A stretch of DNA of 64,000 bases from the NCBI GenBank assembly GCA_000165345.1, contig CM000431.1, forward strand, positions 352,001-416,000, written 5' to 3'. The notes under the pieces were generated by a model that was not told the DNA's origin, made no database searches, and saw nothing but the letters and a program-made list of their open reading frames with translations. Below are positions 6,978 to 51,319 of the stretch, piece by piece; positions within the stretch are counted from its first letter, which is position 1, and every line of letters begins with the position of its first letter. The position numbers and the translations under genes are program-made.

Positions 6978-7094
6978 GTGTTGATCCTTTATTTAGAGGG
7001 AAATGCTAGGAATTAAATTAATTAATTAATAATAAAATAAAAAGATACTTGGCGTTTACAAATTTAGGCAATTTTGGAAGAAATTGAAGTAAAA

Positions 7095-7498
7095 ATGGCA
7101 TCAACTAGCAATGAGCATGAACTTATTACCAAGGAATTTTTAGAAACTCAAAAGAAATTTGAGCAAATCAATGAAAGAAGACGTATTTTGGTTGCACAAG
7201 AAAGCGAAAATCAAATGGTCAGTAAAGAGCTTGAATTGTTGGAGAGTGACGCAGTTATTTATAAGCTAGTCGGAAGTGTGATGGTAAAACAGTCTTTAGA
7301 TGATGCAAAAAGCACAGTTTCTAAAAGATTGGAGTATATTACTGGTGAAATTGAAAGTGTCAATAAGAGTTTTGAAAGTTTGCAATCAAAACTTGTTGAA
7401 AAATCTAATCAGGTGAGTTATAATTACCAATTATTTATTACTTTTTTTTAATTAATCTTAAATCTATATTATAGCTACAAAAATTGCAAAAGGCCTAA
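7095..7498 (+). CDS. PFDN6: Prefoldin subunit 6 (beta-type). Two exons, 7095..7412 and 7475..7498; intron 7413..7474 (GTGAGT...ATAG).
   Basis: The track M at 7074 is a TTG; the true ATG is at 7095. LLESDAVIYKLVGSVMVKQSLDDAKSTVSKRLEYITGEIES aligns with human PFDN6 LLDGSNVVFKLLGPVLVKQELGEARATVGKRLDYITAEIKR. Exon 1 ends in phase 0 at the GTGAGT donor. Exon 2 adds LQKLQKA and a stop. Confidence 0.75.
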
Positions 7499-27039: not shown

Positions 27040-28584
27040 ATGAGAAATTCCCATTTTCTAGGGTTTCTCTTATTACTCCTATTAGTGCTTTCAAAGCAAG
27101 GAGAGGCATTAAAGGTAAAGAGCTTTTTTTTCGGCTTGGGAGGTGGAGATAAGAAAGAAGAGAAGAATGAAAATAAGCAAGAACAGGGGCCCAAATCAAC
27201 ACAAGATACTAACGGAATAAACCCAGCTGCAGGAGTATCCAAATCAGAAGGGAATCCACCTGAAAATTCTTCCAAGCCACCAGAAGAGGCTAAAAAACCC
27301 GAAGGAAGTCATCCTGAGGAAAAACCACCAGTAGAGGCTAAAAAGGCTGAGGGAGGCCATTCTGAAGAAAAGCCACCAGAAAATCACCCTCCTGCAGAGG
27401 GGGGAGAACCAAAACAAGACAATTTACCATTTATTCCTAGTCCACCACCACCACCTCCTTCAATAGCTCCAGAACATGAGCCAGAGCACCCCCCTTCTTC
27501 TTCCCCTCCTCCTCCTCCTCCTCCTCCTCCTCCTCCTCCATCAGGATGTAGCTGTGGCAACGAGAAGCCTCTTTCTGATTGTTGTCATGAAACCGTTTAT
27601 GGTGAGAAGAAAACAGGAGAAAAAAGAAATGCTACAATTACTGGAACAATTACTGGAACAATTACAGATTCAGTATTAACAGCAAAAACAGGAGATGAAA
27701 TAACTGTTAAGCATAATTCTGATAAGCCAACTCCTGAATGTGAACGTTCTAATAAGCAATCTGTTACTACAGTAACTCATGAAGCTCATACAAATCTTCA
27801 TTCTGTACAAAGTGGAAAATTACCTTCTCTTGAAGCATCCCCAAATGTTGGTAAAAGTAAGTTTCCCAATGGAGCCAACTTTATTCCTCTTGTATTGGAT
27901 GCCAATACGGGCCAATATGGAGTTGAACTCAAGACCATGGATTTGCTTGTTACAGGCCAGGATGAAAAAATTAAACCTTTCGATATGTTAATTCCATTCG
28001 TCAATGAAAGCGGTCAAATTAAATTTGTAACTAGAAGGAGATTAAGGCAATTAGTCAAATCTGGTCTTTCAAAAGGTTTCTTAGAAGGTGTTCCTCCATT
28101 TACTCAAGAAGCTATGGTTGAAGGTGCAGCTGAACCAAAAGAAAATAATGAAGAAAAAAATAATGAAGAAAAGAAGAGTGAAGAAAAAAATGATGAAAAG
28201 AAGCCAGAAGAAGAAAAGAGCTCAGAATCATCTGCTGCAGAAAAAGGTAAAGAAGCTGCAAACAGTGCAAAAAGCCTACTGCAAGAGGCTGAAACTGTTC
28301 TTACTGGAGGATCTCTATTTGAACCCTCTGAAAAGAAGGAAGATGATAATAAAAAGGAAGAAAAGGATGACAAGAAAGATGACGATAATAAAAAGGATGA
28401 TGAAAAGGCTGAGGAAGGTGAATCTAGCTCAGAGAAAAAAGACTCCAGCGAGTCAGAAGAAACCTCTGAATCGTCAGGTAGTGAAACATCAAAATCTTCA
28501 AAATCGGATGATGTTGATAGTGCAATGGGAGCACAAGATTCTGCGAGTGTACATGCATCAGAAGAGGAAGAGGAAGAGGAGTGA
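27040..28584 (+). CDS. Secreted low-complexity glycoprotein-like protein. It has a signal peptide, Pro-rich repeats, polyproline, a Cys cluster, a Thr-rich repeat, and a K/E/D/S-rich tail ending in poly-Glu.
   Basis: ATG at 27040. MRNSHFLGFLLLLLLVLSKQGEA is a signal-peptide-like N-terminus. Repeats are KKPEGSHPEEKPP / KKAEGGHSEEKPP. A run of about 14 Pro is encoded by (CCT)n. The Cys cluster is SGCSCGNEKPLSDCCHETVY. TITGTITGTITDS carries potential O-glycosylation sites. Confidence 0.65.
   Translation: MRNSHFLGFLLLLLLVLSKQGEALKVKSFFFGLGGGDKKEEKNENKQEQGPKSTQDTNGINPAAGVSKSEGNPPENSSKPPEEAKKPEGSHPEEKPPVEAKKAEGGHSEEKPPENHPPAEGGEPKQDNLPFIPSPPPPPPSIAPEHEPEHPPSSSPPPPPPPPPPPPSGCSCGNEKPLSDCCHETVYGEKKTGEKRNATITGTITGTITDSVLTAKTGDEITVKHNSDKPTPECERSNKQSVTTVTHEAHTNLHSVQSGKLPSLEASPNVGKSKFPNGANFIPLVLDANTGQYGVELKTMDLLVTGQDEKIKPFDMLIPFVNESGQIKFVTRRRLRQLVKSGLSKGFLEGVPPFTQEAMVEGAAEPKENNEEKNNEEKKSEEKNDEKKPEEEKSSESSAAEKGKEAANSAKSLLQEAETVLTGGSLFEPSEKKEDDNKKEEKDDKKDDDNKKDDEKAEEGESSSEKKDSSESEETSESSGSETSKSSKSDDVDSAMGAQDSASVHASEEEEEEE
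27505..27540. repeat. (CCT)~12 trinucleotide microsatellite encoding polyproline.
   Basis: Seen in the sequence. Confidence 0.9.
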
Positions 28585-31755: not shown

Positions 31756-34700
31756 ATGAATAGGGAAGAGAATCCTTCAGGCGGATCCAGTGAGGTTTCA
31801 CAAGAAAACCCTGAAAATCATGAAGGGATTCAAAATGGTGAAAATATTTCTGAAGACTGGAATCCAGTTGAGGGGGATATAAGAGCTACAGTCTCCAATG
31901 ATCGTCATCAAGCTCAAAATAACAATTTGGATACTGGAATTCATACCTCGAATAGTTTAAGTTCCGAAAACTATGTAGTTGTTGGTTCTTCAGAAAATGA
32001 GATGAGCGAAGAAAAGAGGTTCAAAATTGTAGTTAGACCTTTAAATGGGAGGGATTTAACAGTTGAAGCTTCTCAAACCTCAACAATTCGCCAGCTAAAA
32101 GTTCTGATAGAGGTACAGAGCGGGATTGAAGCTATAAACCAACGTCTAATTTTTCGAGGAAGATGTATGCTTGATGATGATACTGTTGGTACATATATTA
32201 AAGAGGATGGAGTAATAATACATTTGGTTCCATATGCAAGAAATCAGAGAAATGAAGGCTCAGCTCAACCTGCTTCTGAATCCAGATCAAGAGCTTCGGG
32301 AACTGGAGGAAATGCTGCTAACATCCACAACCTTTTTGCTGCAACATCTGGAATACCAGGTTTGAACACATCAATAGGAGGATTTCCTGGTGCAATGATG
32401 TTTGGAGCAATTAGATTAGATGGTGAAACAGGTCTTCCCTTGGAAGCTGAAGATTTGATGCAAAGAGTGTTGAGAACTTTTGGAGATGCAGTAAACGGTA
32501 ATGGGATAGATCAAAATCTGATGAATATTTCCACAGGAACTGGAGATAACAGAAACTTGGGCTCAGTAACGTTTGATTCATTCGCTGTTGGCCAACCAAC
32601 AACAATACCTGGCTTCTCAGGACTTATTTCTAGTACAGAAAGAAGCAATCAGGAGTCTTTATCCTCCAACACTGATGCAAACAGAACCACAACATCCGCA
32701 TCAACTGGTGCTACCGCCAATAATTCTGCAAACTCATCCGCTACTGTTACAGGAACTGAAGGTAGGAGAAGCTCAAATACTAATGGTGCCAATATGAACC
32801 GTTCTGGAAGCAATACGGACTCTAGGTTAAACAACAACTCAGCACAAGCTCAAGGAAATTTCAGAGGTGGGAACGGAGAAGGTATTAGAGGTGATCCGAT
32901 GAATAGCAACCCAATTGGGAGGATTGGGACAATTGTTTCCAGAATTTTCCAGGCCTTTAATCAACCAGTAGGAGAAGGAATCCAGGAAGGAGAAACCAGG
33001 TCTGAAGGCAGAGTTAGTCAGGCTGGAATCGGAAATGGAACTGGGTTGGAAACTGGGGCTAGGGCTGATGTGGGTTCTGGCGCTAACCAGACTGTAGCTT
33101 CTGATAGAACTTCAGGAAACACTACTTCCCAGGATGTCAGGGGGAGAGTTATTTCAAGTCCAGCCTCTGGTCTGAGCTGGACCCAGATTGCATCTTCTGG
33201 GGCTCTGAATACCGGTAGAACAGGTGTACTGCCAATAGGACGTCCAGGTTTAGCAGTTGCAACGATTCCAATCTCTAATTTTTCAATTCCAATTACAATT
33301 AGAGCTACTTCTTCTACGGGGATCCCCTCAATCAATCTTTCTCAGAGCTCAAATACAGTAGCCAGCGTAGCTGCACCCGCCCAGGGGGAGTCAGCCTCTG
33401 CAAGAGCTCCAACAGATACTGGTAGCACTCCATCATCTAATACAAATGTGTCTGAGGCCTATAGAACTTCTTCAAACAATTTCTTTAGGAATATCTCAAA
33501 TGTCCTAGAAGAATCAGCAAATCAGCTACGAACAGTTGCTGCTGGAATCAGAGAAATGAGTGGATTAGAAGGTCCAAGTAGAACTGAACAGAATAGGGAG
33601 GGCTCATCCTCTTCGTCCTCTCTACCTCCAATCCCCTCTAGTGTGAGTAGCAGAAGCATTTCGGGTGAAAATTTGGCTTTGAGTGGCCAGACTTCTGACT
33701 ACATTCAGCACCATTCGCATAGACTTTATATATCTAATGAAGTGGTTCATAGGTTCCTTCCTTGGGACTCTCTTAACGAACTGATGGATATATTGGAGAG
33801 AGATTGTGGATGGAGAAGACCCAGAATTACAATTCCTCCCCCTGTGGATTCTATTGATGCTAGCCCATTGGCAATCTTTATTTCAGTATACCTCCAGGCT
33901 ATGTCAATAGTTCAGTCCAATTTAATGCAAATACAAGCATGGCAAGAGAGGTTTGCCAGATTAGATATCCCAAGACTATGCTATACAGTACATTTACTTG
34001 CGCTTATTTCACATATTTCGGCTCATATTGGCTCACTTTTAGCCTGGCTATTCCAAAATATGGCGCAACATGTCGAACAGGACAGACTTATTGAAGGACT
34101 ACAGTGGAATAGGTCTAGTAATGAAATTGAGAATCCTATAGATATAGTAGAAAAAAGACAAGATACTTCAGAAGAAACTAAAGGAATGGATGTAGATGAA
34201 GAGACTCCATGTGAATTGATTGGAGAAGATATCTTAAATAATGCTAATTTGAATCAAGATAACCAGGATATCAAAGATAATACAGGAAATGTAGCGAAAA
34301 TGTTTGAAAGAGATAGTTCTAGCTTTGGTTTTAATAATGCAAATACAAACTCATCCTCCAATGTGGGCTATGATCAAAACAACGAAGAAATAATAAATAA
34401 GCTTCCTGATGAAATTAGGGAAAAATGGGAAAGATGGACTGGTAATCCACAAAACTTCTCCAGAAATGTTTTTGCCTCATTCTCCACCAGACCCTTCAGT
34501 GATACATACCAACAAGGTGATGTGTTCTCCAGCAGCTCGAGTTTTGGATTCTCCCAACCCTCCAATGAGAATGGAAACACATCAGGTAGTAGAATTAATA
34601 GTCATCCTAGCTCCCAAGAACTTTTGAGAATGATTATTCACCAAACAGAAGCTAATTTGAATATTAGCAGCTCCTCGAATTCTCGTAATTATACTAATAT

Positions 34701-34827
34701 TCAGGCTGAATACCGTTCAATGCTAATCAGAGACCTAATAAATATTGCAAGGAATGACTCTGACTTTCTTAATAATCGAAGCAGATTTCCGTACCTACAA
34801 AGAATTATTTCCCTTTTATATGAGTAA
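31756..34827 (+). CDS. Ubiquitin-like (UBL) domain protein with a long Ser/Thr/Asn/Gly-rich linker and a conserved-looking C-terminal domain (BAG6/Scythe-like, tentative).
   Basis: ATG at 31756. The UBL domain is FKIVVRPLNGRDLTVEASQTSTIRQLKVLIEVQSGIEAINQRLIFRGRCMLDDDTVGTYIKEDGVIIHLV. The rest is low-complexity, then a structured C-terminal ~350 aa. Confidence 0.6.
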   Translation: MNREENPSGGSSEVSQENPENHEGIQNGENISEDWNPVEGDIRATVSNDRHQAQNNNLDTGIHTSNSLSSENYVVVGSSENEMSEEKRFKIVVRPLNGRDLTVEASQTSTIRQLKVLIEVQSGIEAINQRLIFRGRCMLDDDTVGTYIKEDGVIIHLVPYARNQRNEGSAQPASESRSRASGTGGNAANIHNLFAATSGIPGLNTSIGGFPGAMMFGAIRLDGETGLPLEAEDLMQRVLRTFGDAVNGNGIDQNLMNISTGTGDNRNLGSVTFDSFAVGQPTTIPGFSGLISSTERSNQESLSSNTDANRTTTSASTGATANNSANSSATVTGTEGRRSSNTNGANMNRSGSNTDSRLNNNSAQAQGNFRGGNGEGIRGDPMNSNPIGRIGTIVSRIFQAFNQPVGEGIQEGETRSEGRVSQAGIGNGTGLETGARADVGSGANQTVASDRTSGNTTSQDVRGRVISSPASGLSWTQIASSGALNTGRTGVLPIGRPGLAVATIPISNFSIPITIRATSSTGIPSINLSQSSNTVASVAAPAQGESASARAPTDTGSTPSSNTNVSEAYRTSSNNFFRNISNVLEESANQLRTVAAGIREMSGLEGPSRTEQNREGSSSSSSLPPIPSSVSSRSISGENLALSGQTSDYIQHHSHRLYISNEVVHRFLPWDSLNELMDILERDCGWRRPRITIPPPVDSIDASPLAIFISVYLQAMSIVQSNLMQIQAWQERFARLDIPRLCYTVHLLALISHISAHIGSLLAWLFQNMAQHVEQDRLIEGLQWNRSSNEIENPIDIVEKRQDTSEETKGMDVDEETPCELIGEDILNNANLNQDNQDIKDNTGNVAKMFERDSSSFGFNNANTNSSSNVGYDQNNEEIINKLPDEIREKWERWTGNPQNFSRNVFASFSTRPFSDTYQQGDVFSSSSSFGFSQPSNENGNTSGSRINSHPSSQELLRMIIHQTEANLNISSSSNSRNYTNIQAEYRSMLIRDLINIARNDSDFLNNRSRFPYLQRIISLLYE

Positions 34828-45690: not shown

Positions 45691-48600
45691 ATGAGTAACT
45701 ATAAACAAACTGAACTAAAAAGAAACAAGGGCGATTCAAGAGATGTTTCACTACTTTCTGCTTCAAGCTTGCATGAAGGCCAATCAAACATGCAAATGTG
45801 GAGGAGAAGGTGGGAGCCATGCCTACCACACATACTAAGATCCCCGTTATCTATTAAGGAAGTTTCAGCTTTTGAAGGAATGGGGAAAATGGAAAGATCT
45901 GACGTTTCTGCCTATTTTCCTTTAACATCTGGAAACAGTTTGGTGAAGTTTGAGGCCATTTCAGATGGAAGTAGCTCATGGAAGAAGTTTCCCGCCAGAA
46001 GAATCGGAGTAGTATTATCGGGAGGTCAGGCCTCAGGAGGTCATAATGTGATTGCTGGATTAATGTCTTATATTAAACTTTGTAACCAAAGTAGTCAGCT
46101 TTTTGGATTTTTAGGAGGCCCAGAAGGAGTATATAGTGGGAGATACAGAGAGTTAACTGAAGATGATATTAACGGTATACTTAACCAGGGAGGGTTTAAT
46201 ATTATTTGTTCAGGCCGTCACAAAATTGAAACAGAAGAACAAATGAGAGCTTCCTTGGAGATTTGTGAAAAACTCAAATTACATGGCCTAGTAGTAATAG
46301 GAGGAGATGATTCTAATACAAATGCAGCAGTTCTAGCAGAATACTTCAAACGTAACTCGTCTAGTACAGTAGTTGTAGGATGTCCCAAGACCATAGATGG
46401 AGATTTGAAAAACGAGGTAATTGAGACATCTTTTGGTTATGATACAGCAGTGAAAACTTATAGTGAACAGATTGGAAGTATTATGGATGCAATTAAAACT
46501 GAGGGATACGGATACTATTTTGTAAGGTTGATGGGAAGATCTGCATCTCACATTACTTTAGAATGCGGTCTTCAGACTAGAGCGAATATGATCTTGATTG
46601 GAGAAGAAATTAAGGAAGAGAACAGATCTTTGATGTCGATAGTAGACGAAATTGTAGAAATGATTCTAAAAAGAGATTCACTGGGAAAGAAACATGGAAT
46701 TGTATTATTACCCGAAGGGTTAATAGAGTTTATTCCAGAATTTGAGACTTTAATCAAAGAATTAAATCTTATTTTGCTTAAAACTAACGATAGAAAACAG
46801 ATTATAGATAGCTTAAGTCAAGAAATGAAGACTCTTTTCTTGGAGCTTCCTTCAGATGTACAAAATCAGCTCCTTTTAGAAAGGGATCCACATGGTAACG
46901 TTCAAGTAGCAAAGATAGCAACAGAAGAGTTGTTAGTACACATGGCAAAAGAAAAACTTGAGAGGGTAAAGAAGGATTATATTTTAGACAATGTTAAGAC
47001 TCACTACTTTGGATATGAAGGAAGATGCGCTTTACCTTCAAATTTTGATGCAAGTTATTGCTTTGCTCTTGGACATACTGCAGCAGCTCTTATAGACAAT
47101 CAGCGTTCAGGATATATGGCAGTAGTCAGGAAGCTAAGCTTAACTCCTGAACAATGGGAACCAGCAGGATGTCCTCTTACATATATGATGAATATTGAGC
47201 TTAGAAAAGGGAAGTCTGTTCCCGTTATTAAGAAGTACTTAGTAGATCTTAAAGGACAATCTTACTTAGCTTATTGTCAAGTTAGATCTGAGTGGAAGTT
47301 GAATGATTATTACAGAAATCCAGGACCAATACAATTTGATGGTCCTAATTCCGGAGTAACTAATTATATGATTTCTCCTCCAAGAGTGGAGGATTTACTT
47401 AGAATGGAGGATAGATGCGAGAATAAAATGAGTCATAAATTATCAGGGTCAGAAAGCTCTCAAAATAGATCAAAGGACGACATGAAGATACAGAAGATCC
47501 TTCTTTCAACAGCTTCCAAGTTTAACGATGATCTAATCATTTCCTCCTCATGCAGAGATTTAGATGCTTACATTATTACTAAATGTTTACCTCATCAGAC
47601 TGGGAGACACAACAGCAAAATACTACAATTAAAAGAGGAGGAATACTCATCAGGATTCACAGAGATAAGAGAGAACAGCCAGTCAAAATCTTCCATGGGT
47701 AATTCACTAGCTTGTGAGTCACTTGGATTAATTCTATCATGCCTTTCAACTCCTGGTACTCAGAATGTAATTTGTGGACTAGTCAATGGACTACCATCGC
47801 TTAAACAGCTTATAGTTTTTAAGTCTCTCTCAGACTTTTCAGAAGGAAAAGCTCTAAAAGTCGATCTTACTTCCGAAGGATCATTGGCTTTCTTTGAGAA
47901 TTCTCTCAATTCTGGAGGCTGTATATTCCCAAATGGAGTAGAAATAAAAATGAATGTCTCAGAAAAAAAGAGCTCAAATACAACTTTAAAAGCTAATGAT
48001 AACCAAGAATTCACAAACAGCTCTTGCGTTCTTTCATGCAAAGGGCTAGTTAGTAATGACTTCCTCTCTCAACTCTTGTCATTTTTTAATATGCGTGCAA
48101 TTGCAATTGTGGGGAACAGTGAGGCGGCAACGTTTGGCGCCTCTATATCGGAGCAATTAATTTGCATGTCGTTAAATGGCATGAAGAGTGAGATCCCAGT
48201 AGTGTTTGTTCCAGTTTGCTTGGAAAACAGTATTTCTCATCAAATGATTGAGACATGTATTGGATTTGACTCTGTAACTAAGAGTATTTCAACTTTGGTT
48301 GGAAATCTGTTAACAGATTCAGCTTCAGCAACAAAGTATTGGTATTTCATGAAGATGATAGGCGATAAGACTTCAAATGTTGCTTTAGAGGTTGGAATAC
48401 AAACTCATCCAAATTTGGTTGTAATTCCAGAAAGATATGCAGATGGAAAACTTTCAGTTTATGGTTCAGAAATGGCTGGGGTCACTTTAGATGATATTAT
48501 TACTGAAATTTGTGATATAATTTGTTTGAGATCTAATCAGGGAAATAATTTTGGCGGGCTCCTGGTATCAGAAGGTCTTTTTGACCAGGTATACCCAACA

Positions 48601-49674
48601 AGAGAGTATAGGAAGATATTTTCAAGGTTTAGCACTCAGAATTTATGTAATGCTTCAAATTCAGGATGCGAGATTCTGGGTTCTGAAAGTTTAAGTAGAT
48701 ATGAGAAAAAAGTTGTTGAGGATTTCAAACTTATATTTAGTGATATAGATACGAGACTTATTGAGAATTTGATTAATTCAAGAAAGATATGTGATGTTAG
48801 GACTGAGATTATACTCTCAGCTCTGGTTCAAAAGGAACTCAAATTTAGAAGGTCTAAGAATAAAATTAAGAATGGGATGAACCCAGTGTGCTTTAGTTTT
48901 ACAGATCAAGTCAGAGCTTGTATCCCTTCTGATTTTGACTCTACACTTGGATTAATGTACGGAATGCTTGCATCAAAAATAATTAATAGTAACTTGGTTG
49001 GGGGATATGTTACGGGGATTAAGGGGGTATTGAGCCAGACAGATAGTTGGAATATGTATGCTATTCCTATTTCCTCTTTAATGACTTTAAATATTGAAGG
49101 AGATAAAATACAGGATTCAAGAAACAACTCAAATCTTTCATTTGAATCAAAGAAACTTCTAACCGAATCTACACTAGGAAATGCTGGCCATCAACTTGAA
49201 TTCATATGCAAACTGAATTCCGTTAATTTGCGCAATAACCCTTCATTTAAACTTTTAATGAACCACATTGAAAAATGGGAAGTCGATAATACTTATGCTA
49301 ATCCAGGCCCTATTCAATACTTTAATCTATTCAAAAATTTATTCAACAGAACACTATTTGAAAGTGAATACGTTTATACGCGAAACCTAAAAGAAATGGA
49401 TCAAATATTACTTGAAATTAAGACATTATGCCAATTAGGTGTTGAAAAGGATATTTTAAACTCTACTATACAACACTTAAAGGCAATTCAAAATTCTATT
49501 TCAATAATGAGCAGCTGTAACCACAGAAAATCTAAACCAGAACAAATAGAATGCATACAGAAAACAAACTCAATAGCAAACTACACATCAAACTTAAAAT
49601 GCAAAAGCAATAATAATGAAACCAATCTGGAAATGATTGTTAACAATATTATTAATCAGGAAACTTGCAATTAA
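45691..49674 (+). CDS. Pyrophosphate-dependent phosphofructokinase (PPi-PFK), a long two-domain form with a catalytic N-terminal half and a degenerate C-terminal PFK-like half.
   Basis: ATG at 45691. The N-terminal half has GGDDS (VVIGGDDSNTNAAVL; Asp at the Gly position is typical of PPi-dependent enzymes), PKTIDGD (GCPKTIDGDLKN) and MGR (LMGRSASH). In the C-terminal half the same positions read VGNSEA, PVCLENS and MIGDKT, so the catalytic signatures are lost. Confidence 0.9.
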   Translation: MSNYKQTELKRNKGDSRDVSLLSASSLHEGQSNMQMWRRRWEPCLPHILRSPLSIKEVSAFEGMGKMERSDVSAYFPLTSGNSLVKFEAISDGSSSWKKFPARRIGVVLSGGQASGGHNVIAGLMSYIKLCNQSSQLFGFLGGPEGVYSGRYRELTEDDINGILNQGGFNIICSGRHKIETEEQMRASLEICEKLKLHGLVVIGGDDSNTNAAVLAEYFKRNSSSTVVVGCPKTIDGDLKNEVIETSFGYDTAVKTYSEQIGSIMDAIKTEGYGYYFVRLMGRSASHITLECGLQTRANMILIGEEIKEENRSLMSIVDEIVEMILKRDSLGKKHGIVLLPEGLIEFIPEFETLIKELNLILLKTNDRKQIIDSLSQEMKTLFLELPSDVQNQLLLERDPHGNVQVAKIATEELLVHMAKEKLERVKKDYILDNVKTHYFGYEGRCALPSNFDASYCFALGHTAAALIDNQRSGYMAVVRKLSLTPEQWEPAGCPLTYMMNIELRKGKSVPVIKKYLVDLKGQSYLAYCQVRSEWKLNDYYRNPGPIQFDGPNSGVTNYMISPPRVEDLLRMEDRCENKMSHKLSGSESSQNRSKDDMKIQKILLSTASKFNDDLIISSSCRDLDAYIITKCLPHQTGRHNSKILQLKEEEYSSGFTEIRENSQSKSSMGNSLACESLGLILSCLSTPGTQNVICGLVNGLPSLKQLIVFKSLSDFSEGKALKVDLTSEGSLAFFENSLNSGGCIFPNGVEIKMNVSEKKSSNTTLKANDNQEFTNSSCVLSCKGLVSNDFLSQLLSFFNMRAIAIVGNSEAATFGASISEQLICMSLNGMKSEIPVVFVPVCLENSISHQMIETCIGFDSVTKSISTLVGNLLTDSASATKYWYFMKMIGDKTSNVALEVGIQTHPNLVVIPERYADGKLSVYGSEMAGVTLDDIITEICDIICLRSNQGNNFGGLLVSEGLFDQVYPTREYRKIFSRFSTQNLCNASNSGCEILGSESLSRYEKKVVEDFKLIFSDIDTRLIENLINSRKICDVRTEIILSALVQKELKFRRSKNKIKNGMNPVCFSFTDQVRACIPSDFDSTLGLMYGMLASKIINSNLVGGYVTGIKGVLSQTDSWNMYAIPISSLMTLNIEGDKIQDSRNNSNLSFESKKLLTESTLGNAGHQLEFICKLNSVNLRNNPSFKLLMNHIEKWEVDNTYANPGPIQYFNLFKNLFNRTLFESEYVYTRNLKEMDQILLEIKTLCQLGVEKDILNSTIQHLKAIQNSISIMSSCNHRKSKPEQIECIQKTNSIANYTSNLKCKSNNNETNLEMIVNNIINQETCN

Positions 49675-49732
49675 TTCAATTACACATTTTGGCGGTAAGG
49701 CGCCAAAATGTGTGCAATCATATATTTTACGA

Positions 49733-50038
49733 AAAATTTAGTCCGAGATGAATCTCGCGAATCACTGAGATGCCAGGAAGTTACACAACTACTGTTATCC
49801 TTACACCGTACTACAGCGAACCCTTTTCCGTGCTCTGTTTCCAGCCTCCGGCGGTACGGGTTTCACTATCTCACAAGTCACCTCGGTCTCCACCAAGGCA
49901 ACTCTAGAGACTGCAGCCTTGTAATGGGCAGCCATCGTGCAATGTTACTTCCGGGATGTAGTGACACAGTATCCCATCCTAAACCTTTAACGACTCCACT
50001 TGGTTACAGCTGGGCGTTATCCCAGCCAGTCACTATCT
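49733..50038 (-). ncRNA. Signal recognition particle RNA (SRP/7SL RNA), about 305 nt, transcribed on the minus strand. Ends are approximate (±10 nt).
   Basis: Sharply GC-rich island in an AT-rich genome. The minus-strand read GUGAAACCCGUACCGCCGGAGGCUGGAAACAGAGCACGGAAAAGGGUUCGCUGUAGUACGGUG parallels the human 7SL S-domain GGUGAACCGGCCCAGGUCGGAAACGGAGCAGGUCAAAACUCCCGUGCUGAUCAGUAGUGGG (helix 8 GNRA loop GGAAAC, AGCA.GG, AAAA bulge). The minus-strand 5' end GGCUGGGAUAACGCCCAGCUGUAACC is Alu-domain-like (compare CCUGUAGUCCCAGCUACU). The 3' end runs into UUUUU (plus-strand 49732-49736), a pol III terminator. An AT-rich TATA-like stretch and TTTGGCGGGAA lie within 70 bp upstream (plus coordinates 50040-50107). 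The overlapping track ORF 49708-50040 is spurious. Confidence 0.7.
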
Positions 50039-50096
50039 AATGTTTTAGAATTTAGATTATTAAATACTTTACAATACTTTTGAATGACGGCTATTA

Positions 50097-50107
50097 TTTG
50101 GCGGGAA
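50097..50107. promoter_or_regulatory. TTTGGCGGGAA element placed between the divergently oriented SRP RNA gene (about 60 bp away) and the Kish gene (about 145 bp away).
   Basis: Seen in the sequence. Confidence 0.45.
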
Positions 50108-50249
50108 CTTACAGCTCATTTATTTTATATTTGTGAAATAGAGGGGGTGGTAAGAATATAAAAAATAAGCTGATATAATCATTGAAATTATTACAATTAT
50201 TGTTAGAATTGGCTGAGTGAAGATATTTCACAGTTAGTTCTCGATCAAA

Positions 50250-50468
50250 ATGTCTGCTCTATTCAATTTTCAAAGCATGATTGTGGTGGTCTTGCTGTCA
50301 ATATGTACATGCTCGTATTTACGTCCAAAAATTCCAGGCTTAATAGACAATAAAAAGTCAGGTTTTTTGGGAATTCTAGGTAAAATGGCGGTTATTGGAG
50401 ATAGACTTAGCCCATATGTGTCATTCGCATGCATTCTAATGGCAGGCATGACATTATTCTATAGATAA
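50250..50468 (+). CDS. Protein Kish (TMEM167/Ksh1), a 72-aa small membrane protein of the early secretory pathway.
   Basis: ATG at 50250. MSALFNFQSMIVVVLLSICTCSYLRPKIPGLIDNKKSGFLGILGKMAVIGDRLSPYVSFACILMAGMTLF is co-linear with human TMEM167A [70 protein letters not shown]. Confidence 0.85.
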   Translation: MSALFNFQSMIVVVLLSICTCSYLRPKIPGLIDNKKSGFLGILGKMAVIGDRLSPYVSFACILMAGMTLFYR

Positions 50469-50672: not shown

Positions 50673-51319
50673 CTACTTCAAACCAAATCTTAATTTTCTT
50701 GCTTGGATCTTCTTTTCATGATCTGGATCATTTACTCTTGACATTGTTCCAAACCTTTCTCTTCTATTTTTAATTTTGTCAGCTTCTGATATCATTCCAA
50801 ATCTTTCTTGTCTAAGCTTTCTCTTATCATCTTCTGACGTAGAACCAAATCTTTTTGAACGAGCAAGCCTTTTCTCAGCTTCTGTGGATGGGCCACATGC
50901 TCCAAACTTCTGTCTTCTTAATTCAACTCTTTCTTTTTCAGAAAGTTGGTTAACATCACTTATACATATTGTTTGTCTTACTGGCTCAGAAATGCTTACA
51001 TTCTTTTCTCCTTGATCAGTTTTTACTTCATTACTAGAATTAGTCATTGGCTCATCAAATTCCTCTTTCTCTGCTGATACAGATGTAGTAGCAGTAGCGG
51101 CTGGTACTGTACTATCTGTATGGTTATTTTGTGAGTCATAATCAATCAATGCTTGAACTAGTTGTTGCTAAAAAACAGAAAAAATTACAATTAATATTCA
51201 AATTTCATTACAGATTAAGATTAAAGTCAATTATCACATACCTTTCTCCCAGTAACAGATAAGCCTCTTTCTTTTAATAGCTCCTTCAACTCATCAATCT
51301 TTAAAGTATTATAGTTCAT
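50673..51319 (-). CDS. SAP-domain ribonucleoprotein (SARNP/Tho1/CIP29-like). Two exons, 51242..51319 and 50673..51167; intron 51168..51241.
   Basis: Exon 1 (minus strand) encodes MNYNTLKIDELKELLKERGLSVTGRK, which is a SAP motif. It ends at a GTATGT donor in phase 0. A TTTTTTAG acceptor follows, then QQLVQALIDYD... The C-terminus has Tho1-like RFG repeats (SKRFGSTSEDDKRKLRQERFGMISEADKIKNRRERFGT...KLRFG). Confidence 0.7.

Follow-up and report, generated by a model that had tools for sequence, protein, structure and literature searches.

The SRP (7SL) RNA gene of Cryptosporidium parvum and the doubtful protein model on its opposite strand

Within the 64,000 nt of Cryptosporidium parvum DNA analysed here (the whole stretch is called the window below), one short segment invites two readings. 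[quoted passage not shown] Which of the two is the gene, or whether both are, is the question that this locus raises. An earlier note, made from the sequence, had proposed an SRP (7SL) RNA gene hidden beneath the frame, to be examined with a covariance-model search and a check of the fold. Our reading is that positions 49732-50031 of the minus strand are the single-copy SRP RNA gene of C. parvum, with a canonical 7SL fold, and that the 110-codon frame on the plus strand is no protein gene; we put the probability of this reading at about 97%. Identity, structure, conservation, synteny and the decay of the open reading frame were computed here, expression is taken from the literature, and protein binding, RNA polymerase III transcription and promoter roles we infer from established SRP biology. 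The genes and frames concerned are the following.

45691-49674: phosphofructokinase ORF, 1327 aa, double-length and uninterrupted, with two PFK-domain stretches (Pfam PFK)
49708-50040, plus strand: ATG-initiated ORF of 110 aa, deposited as a hypothetical protein, almost certainly spurious in view of its decay across species
49732-50031, minus strand: SRP (7SL) RNA gene, about 300 nt, from the Protozoa_SRP match, seven Plant_SRP matches in orthologues and sequence conservation
50250-50468, plus strand: neighbouring gene for a DUF1242 (PF06842) protein of 72 aa, divergent from the SRP RNA gene
50673-51149, minus strand: neighbouring gene for a SAP/Tho1_MOS11_C protein, 158-aa ORF

Identity, extent and conservation of the RNA gene

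When the whole window was compared with Rfam 15 at the gathering threshold, a single match was obtained, to RF01856 (Protozoa_SRP), at 50013-49774 of the minus strand. This match spans the full model (1-228 of 228); at 150.1 bits (E 1.4e-32) it lies well above the cut-off of 65 and bears out the proposed SRP RNA and its strand. The alignment reproduces the family consensus both in helix 8 (AGGCUGGaAACAGAGCA, exact) and in the Alu-domain motif GCUGUAACC. The helix-8-like core and the Alu-like 5' end to which the earlier note had pointed are indeed present on the minus strand, as GGCUGGAAACAGAGCACGGAAAAGG at 49846-49822 and GGCUGGGAUAACGCCCAGCUGUAACC at 50027-50002, respectively. Folded as a single sequence, the SRP RNA stretch reaches z = -4.2 relative to dinucleotide shuffles.

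In order to follow the gene beyond C. parvum, we used nine orthologous phosphofructokinase loci, from C. hominis, C. sp. chipmunk genotype I, C. ubiquitum, C. canis, the Cryptosporidium of run SRR31860986, C. felis, C. xiaoi, C. ryanae and C. andersoni. All nine yield an SRP RNA match above threshold (112-150 bits), on the same strand and at the same syntenic site, which in the ten species lies between the PPi-phosphofructokinase gene and the DUF1242 gene. For seven of the nine orthologues the best model is Plant_SRP, matched at full length (model 1-305). The ends of these seven matches fall on the same two columns of the flanked alignment, equivalent to window positions 50031 and 49731, and we therefore delimit the gene as about 300 nt at 49732-50031. 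In the ten-species alignment, conservation of the sequence agrees with these limits: it sets in at about 50033, only a few bases from 50031, and stops at the T-run. The ends first proposed, 49733 and 50038, were 1-7 nt away from those that the models define. Judging from the alignment, the RNA probably begins somewhere from 50031 to about 50037 and ends within the T-run at 49736-49732.

The most distant orthologue, that of C. andersoni (L011:7760-8067), still gives an SRP RNA of 121 bits; it has 7-nt insertions in the 5' strand of helix 5 and directly before the T-run. The flanking genes offer some observations of their own. The exact 1327-aa phosphofructokinase sequence is also encoded on CP044420.1 (C. 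parvum IOWA-ATCC, GCA_015245375.1), and the proteins nearest to it come from Cryptosporidium species and carry the name pyrophosphate-dependent phosphofructokinase; identity is 49-97% across Cryptosporidium and about 39% in gregarines and Vitrella. The SAP/Tho1_MOS11_C gene may contain an intron or start further upstream, since its ORF has 158 aa here and its called product in L001 has 190. In chipmunk genotype I (SCFC02000005.1, L008:3001-7878) one model of 1460 aa, P0002, joins Pfam PFK and DUF1242, and the SRP RNA at 7044-7343 lies within its apparent intron; this fusion is probably an annotation artefact.

The base composition that had first drawn attention to the locus holds in part. At 49.3% GC, 49733-50038 stands well above the window mean of 32.2%, and 0.39% of 306-nt windows are as high. 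It had been described as the only strongly GC-rich island, but it is not the sole one, since two other stretches, 27212-27630 and 32881-33440, are equal or richer at 49-52% GC (up to 52% and 51%, respectively). The Rfam scan found no RNA family at either. Both sit within long ORFs (27040-28584 and 31756-34827), and the SRP RNA island is therefore the only one outside a long coding ORF.

The gene had also been taken for unannotated, which it was not. Li et al. (2022; Microb Genom 8:000821, PMC9465071) ran an Infernal/Rfam cmscan with gathering cut-offs on the C. parvum IOWA-ATCC assembly and found one SRP RNA among 55 benchmark ncRNAs, nested antisense in CPATCC_0032370 and covered by 22,884 small-RNA-seq reads. 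An alveolate-wide survey of conserved elements likewise recovered one Protozoa_SRP element. The C. parvum SRP RNA and its small-RNA expression are thus already published, and the molecule described here is the same one (RF01856, clan CL00003), with no difference in the RNA. What is new here is the cross-species evidence that bears on the overlapping protein model, together with a residue-level map of the SRP RNA.

Helical layout and covariation

The structure was derived with RNAalifold from the ten-species alignment (mean identity 83%). The consensus fold consists of 92 pairs that form helices 2, 3, 4, 5, 6 and 8 in the canonical layout, and its elements can be placed on the window as follows, all on the minus strand.

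49992-50031: 5' part of the Alu domain, from the RNAalifold consensus
50031-50028 with 49995-49992: helix 2, columns 1-4 with 37-40, 4 bp, of which 1 covaries
50027-50008: helix 3, columns 5-11 with 18-24, 7 bp and a 6-nt loop, double changes in 3 of 7 pairs, 100% paired
50008-50003: UGUAAC U-turn motif, invariant
50003-49996: minimal helix 4, 2 bp (CC/GG) round a NAGU loop, never varies
49910-49988: helix 5, 5' strand, partner 49817-49732, several segments with compensatory changes
49732-49817: helix 5, 3' strand, including a variable Alu-proximal segment and the terminal U-run
49870-49909: helix 6, 15 pairs, 6 with double changes, 96.7% paired, GGAG (GNAR) tetraloop at 49891-49888, expected SRP19 site
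49819-49862: helix 8, GAAA tetraloop at 49841-49838 and AGG/AGCA loop, expected SRP54 M-domain site

Compensatory double changes affect 29 of the 92 pairs. As a control, the 3' partners were slid by 1-3 columns, which left 1-8 such changes, and 500 shuffles were made. Standard pairs make up 96.8% of pair cells in the observed register against 35.5-40.7% in the slid ones, and the covariation score is 0.284 against 0.040-0.076; the observed values are reached by none of the 500 shuffles. The helices whose pairing the earlier note had wanted checked (5, with its pairing of 5' and 3' halves, 6 and 8) thus all carry compensatory changes across the ten Cryptosporidium species. Helix 5, which joins the two halves of the molecule, comprises 53 pairs in eight segments (85-100% paired), 16 of the pairs with double changes, and the terminal U-run can pair with AAAG at 49988-49985. 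The basal stem of helix 8 has double changes in three of its five pairs, and the core of this helix, AGGCUGGAAACAGAGCA at 49847-49831, agrees with the model consensus and is identical in nine of the ten species.

Conservation of the loops is stricter still. Across the ten species no base changes in UGUAAC or in the tetraloops of helices 6 (GGAG) and 8 (GAAA), and the AGG/AGCA symmetric loop of helix 8 shows a one-base change in C. andersoni only. In SRP RNAs, SRP19 binds on helices 6 and 8, the M domain of SRP54 on helix 8, and SRP9/14 on the U-turn. The Alu domain of the Cryptosporidium RNA, made up of helices 2, 3 and 4, UGUAAC and distal helix 5, would accordingly be expected to bind SRP9/14 and to slow translation elongation. 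The S domain (helix 6, helix 8 and proximal helix 5) would bind SRP19, SRP54 and SRP68/72 and would carry the signal-sequence-binding GTPase.

Comparison with known SRP RNAs places the molecule close to the general eukaryotic pattern. The seven orthologues that match Plant_SRP (RF01855) at full length point to a complete Alu and S layout of about 300 nt with paired 5' and 3' ends. The GGAG of helix 6 and the GAAA and AGG/AGCA of helix 8 are alike in Cryptosporidium and in human 7SL as it is generally known. Helix 4 differs, since it is minimal in Cryptosporidium (2 bp and a 4-nt loop) and has about 4-5 bp and a 6-nt loop in the human RNA. The SRP RNA of Plasmodium falciparum, also an apicomplexan, belongs to the same Rfam family, is of similar length (303 nt) and has the full helix set (PMC4040695; Soni et al., 2021, PMC8137916). 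Its Alu RNA has insertions in H3 and H4, smaller loops and an open shape without the loop-loop pseudoknot (same sources), whereas H4 is short in Cryptosporidium and invariant loop bases could form two loop-loop pairs (A15-U34 and C16-G33, RNA numbering) between helices 3 and 4, as in a closed Alu fold. As these candidate pairs do not vary among the ten species, covariation is silent on them either way.

Transcription signals around the gene

Several short elements flank the RNA gene and are listed here as read from the sequence.

49687-49708: second E2F-like pair, TTTTGGCGG..GGCGCCAAAA, in the 57-bp gap between the phosphofructokinase stop codon and the RNA terminator, overlapping the ATG of the 110-aa ORF
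49732-49736, minus strand: T5 run, putative RNA polymerase III terminator
50048-50066, minus strand: A/T-rich proximal region, putatively part of the promoter, with the TATA-like TATTTAATAAT at 50066-50056 and AAATTC at 50053-50048
50084-50091, minus strand: upstream block GCCGTCAT, -60 to -53 relative to 50031, candidate gene-specific promoter element
50097-50108, plus strand: E2F-like motif TTTGGCGGGAAC, kept in nine of ten species; the RNA gene and the divergent DUF1242 gene share the 218-bp spacer in which it lies

The T5 run noticed earlier is present, and its role in RNA polymerase III termination is putative. A T-rich run occurs at the equivalent alignment position in all ten species, as TTTT(T) in seven and as TTGTTTA or TATTTT(T) in three, and such a T-rich 3' end is consistent with RNA polymerase III. 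Most likely, this polymerase would transcribe the gene from upstream elements and stop at the T-run. Among the candidates for such elements, GCCGTCAT is identical or one to two bases off in all ten species and occurs once in the window. AAATTC is largely conserved and AAAG is a further conserved upstream block; the TATA-like TATTTAATAAT is not conserved in C. felis or in the distant species. A bacterial-style promoter and terminator scan of 49600-50300, which is not meaningful for a eukaryotic RNA polymerase III gene, returned no hairpin terminator.

The strongest upstream block is TTCCCGCC at 50107-50100, the reverse complement of TTTGGCGGGAAC, separated from GCCGTCAT by a gap of 8. We considered it as an SRP-specific RNA polymerase III element similar to the plant USE, and this could be ruled out. 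Its 8-nt core TTYCCGCC occurs nine times in the window against 0.6 expected, and TTTGGCGGGAAC equals motif 4 (TTTGGCGGGAAV) of an E2F-like family that Oberstaller et al. (2013) report from the upstream regions of most C. parvum genes; the motif is for these reasons a general one and not specific to the SRP RNA. It may serve the divergent DUF1242 gene (50250-50468) instead of the RNA gene. In C. andersoni, TGGCGGCCA replaces the TTCCCGCC block. E2F-like motifs stand on both sides of the SRP RNA gene, and in the set of Oberstaller et al. (2013) they correspond to motifs 3 and 4.

A scan of the window for a tRNA gene linked to the SRP RNA found none. Linkage of this kind is familiar from trypanosomatid loci, where tRNA genes accompany 7SL.

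The antisense frame, rival readings and annotation

The plus-strand frame has been deposited repeatedly, as EAK89145.1 and UniProt Q5CUU8 (C. parvum Iowa II), as QOY42490.1 (IOWA-ATCC) and as KAL5369490.1 (CPHLJ_3g1410). In CryptoDB it is CPATCC_0032370, and its exact-sequence cluster holds C. parvum and C. hominis entries only. To judge from the parallel locus tag CPHLJ_3g1410, it is probably also cgd3_1410, and in a microarray study of C. parvum oocysts cgd3_1410, a 'small hypothetical protein', ranks third among the genes up-regulated 0.5 h after UV treatment (PMC3542205).

Such a record leaves room for the view that both genes are real, with the SRP RNA and an antisense CPATCC_0032370 (cgd3_1410) overlapping and co-evolving, and with a young protein restricted to the lineage of C. 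parvum and C. hominis; Li et al. (2022, PMC9465071) took the overlap as possible co-evolution. Several assemblies do include the protein, and the frame is open in both C. parvum and C. hominis, with 110 and 115 aa, respectively, but its intactness is uninformative because these two species are 99% identical here. Followed through the alignment, it is intact in these two of the ten species only and broken in all eight more distant ones, with 2-4 stops and with indels of lengths not divisible by three; in chipmunk genotype I, at 92% identity, frameshifts and two stops are already present. The variable sites are spread flatly over codon positions 1/2/3 (52/58/57), and since there is no third-position excess, the frame bears no coding signature. 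A Pfam search of the 110 aa gave no family at E <= 0.01, and the frame thus passed none of the checks made for conserved coding. When the 342-nt stretch is shuffled with its dinucleotides kept, about 2% of trials, and no more, give a frame of 110 codons or longer, which speaks for a protein, as do the microarray signal of cgd3_1410, the probable synonym, and the E2F-like motifs (49687-49708) directly upstream of the ATG. On the other side, frames of at least 100 codons arise in 5% of the shuffles, and other species have stop-free stretches of 70-136 codons in other frames or positions, which indicate that such frames arise readily on this sequence. Taking both sides together, we regard two co-evolving genes as very unlikely, and where Li et al. 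(2022) left them possible, the cross-species test made here argues that the protein gene is an artefact. We strongly doubt, too, that the ORF is a truly translated de novo gene of C. parvum and C. hominis only, driven by the E2F-like motifs; if it were, the two strands of one 300-bp stretch would encode different products, a protein on one and an essential structural RNA on the other.

Another possibility to be weighed is that the locus is a decayed relic of an SRP RNA, a pseudogene or SINE-like copy, and not a working gene. Repeats derived from 7SL do exist in other eukaryotes, and this general knowledge is what can be said for it, as nothing in the present analysis favours it. The full-length Rfam match is strong and the only one in the window, the gene is syntenic in ten species, compensatory changes keep its helices, and the protein-binding loops are near-invariant. 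No other SRP RNA is reported for the genome, and small-RNA-seq shows this one in abundance (Li et al., 2022, PMC9465071). The relic reading is effectively refuted. We thus return to a working SRP RNA gene on the minus strand, opposite an ORF that is almost certainly not a real gene and that, from its sequence, is best explained as an artefact of composition. The frame would be a by-product of stop-poor sequence of 48-49% GC in a genome of 32% GC.

That every eukaryote needs SRP RNA is textbook biology, and the value of the present result lies in the clean-up of annotation. The hypothetical protein model Q5CUU8 has stood antisense to the RNA since the first C. parvum genome and has been copied into C. 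hominis and into newer assemblies. If cgd3_1410 is the 110-aa ORF, the microarray signal after UV would come from a locus whose real product is the SRP RNA, on the other strand. On the cross-species evidence, the model CPATCC_0032370 should be retired and the locus relabelled as ncRNA, and the fusion of phosphofructokinase and DUF1242 in the chipmunk genotype calls for the same treatment.
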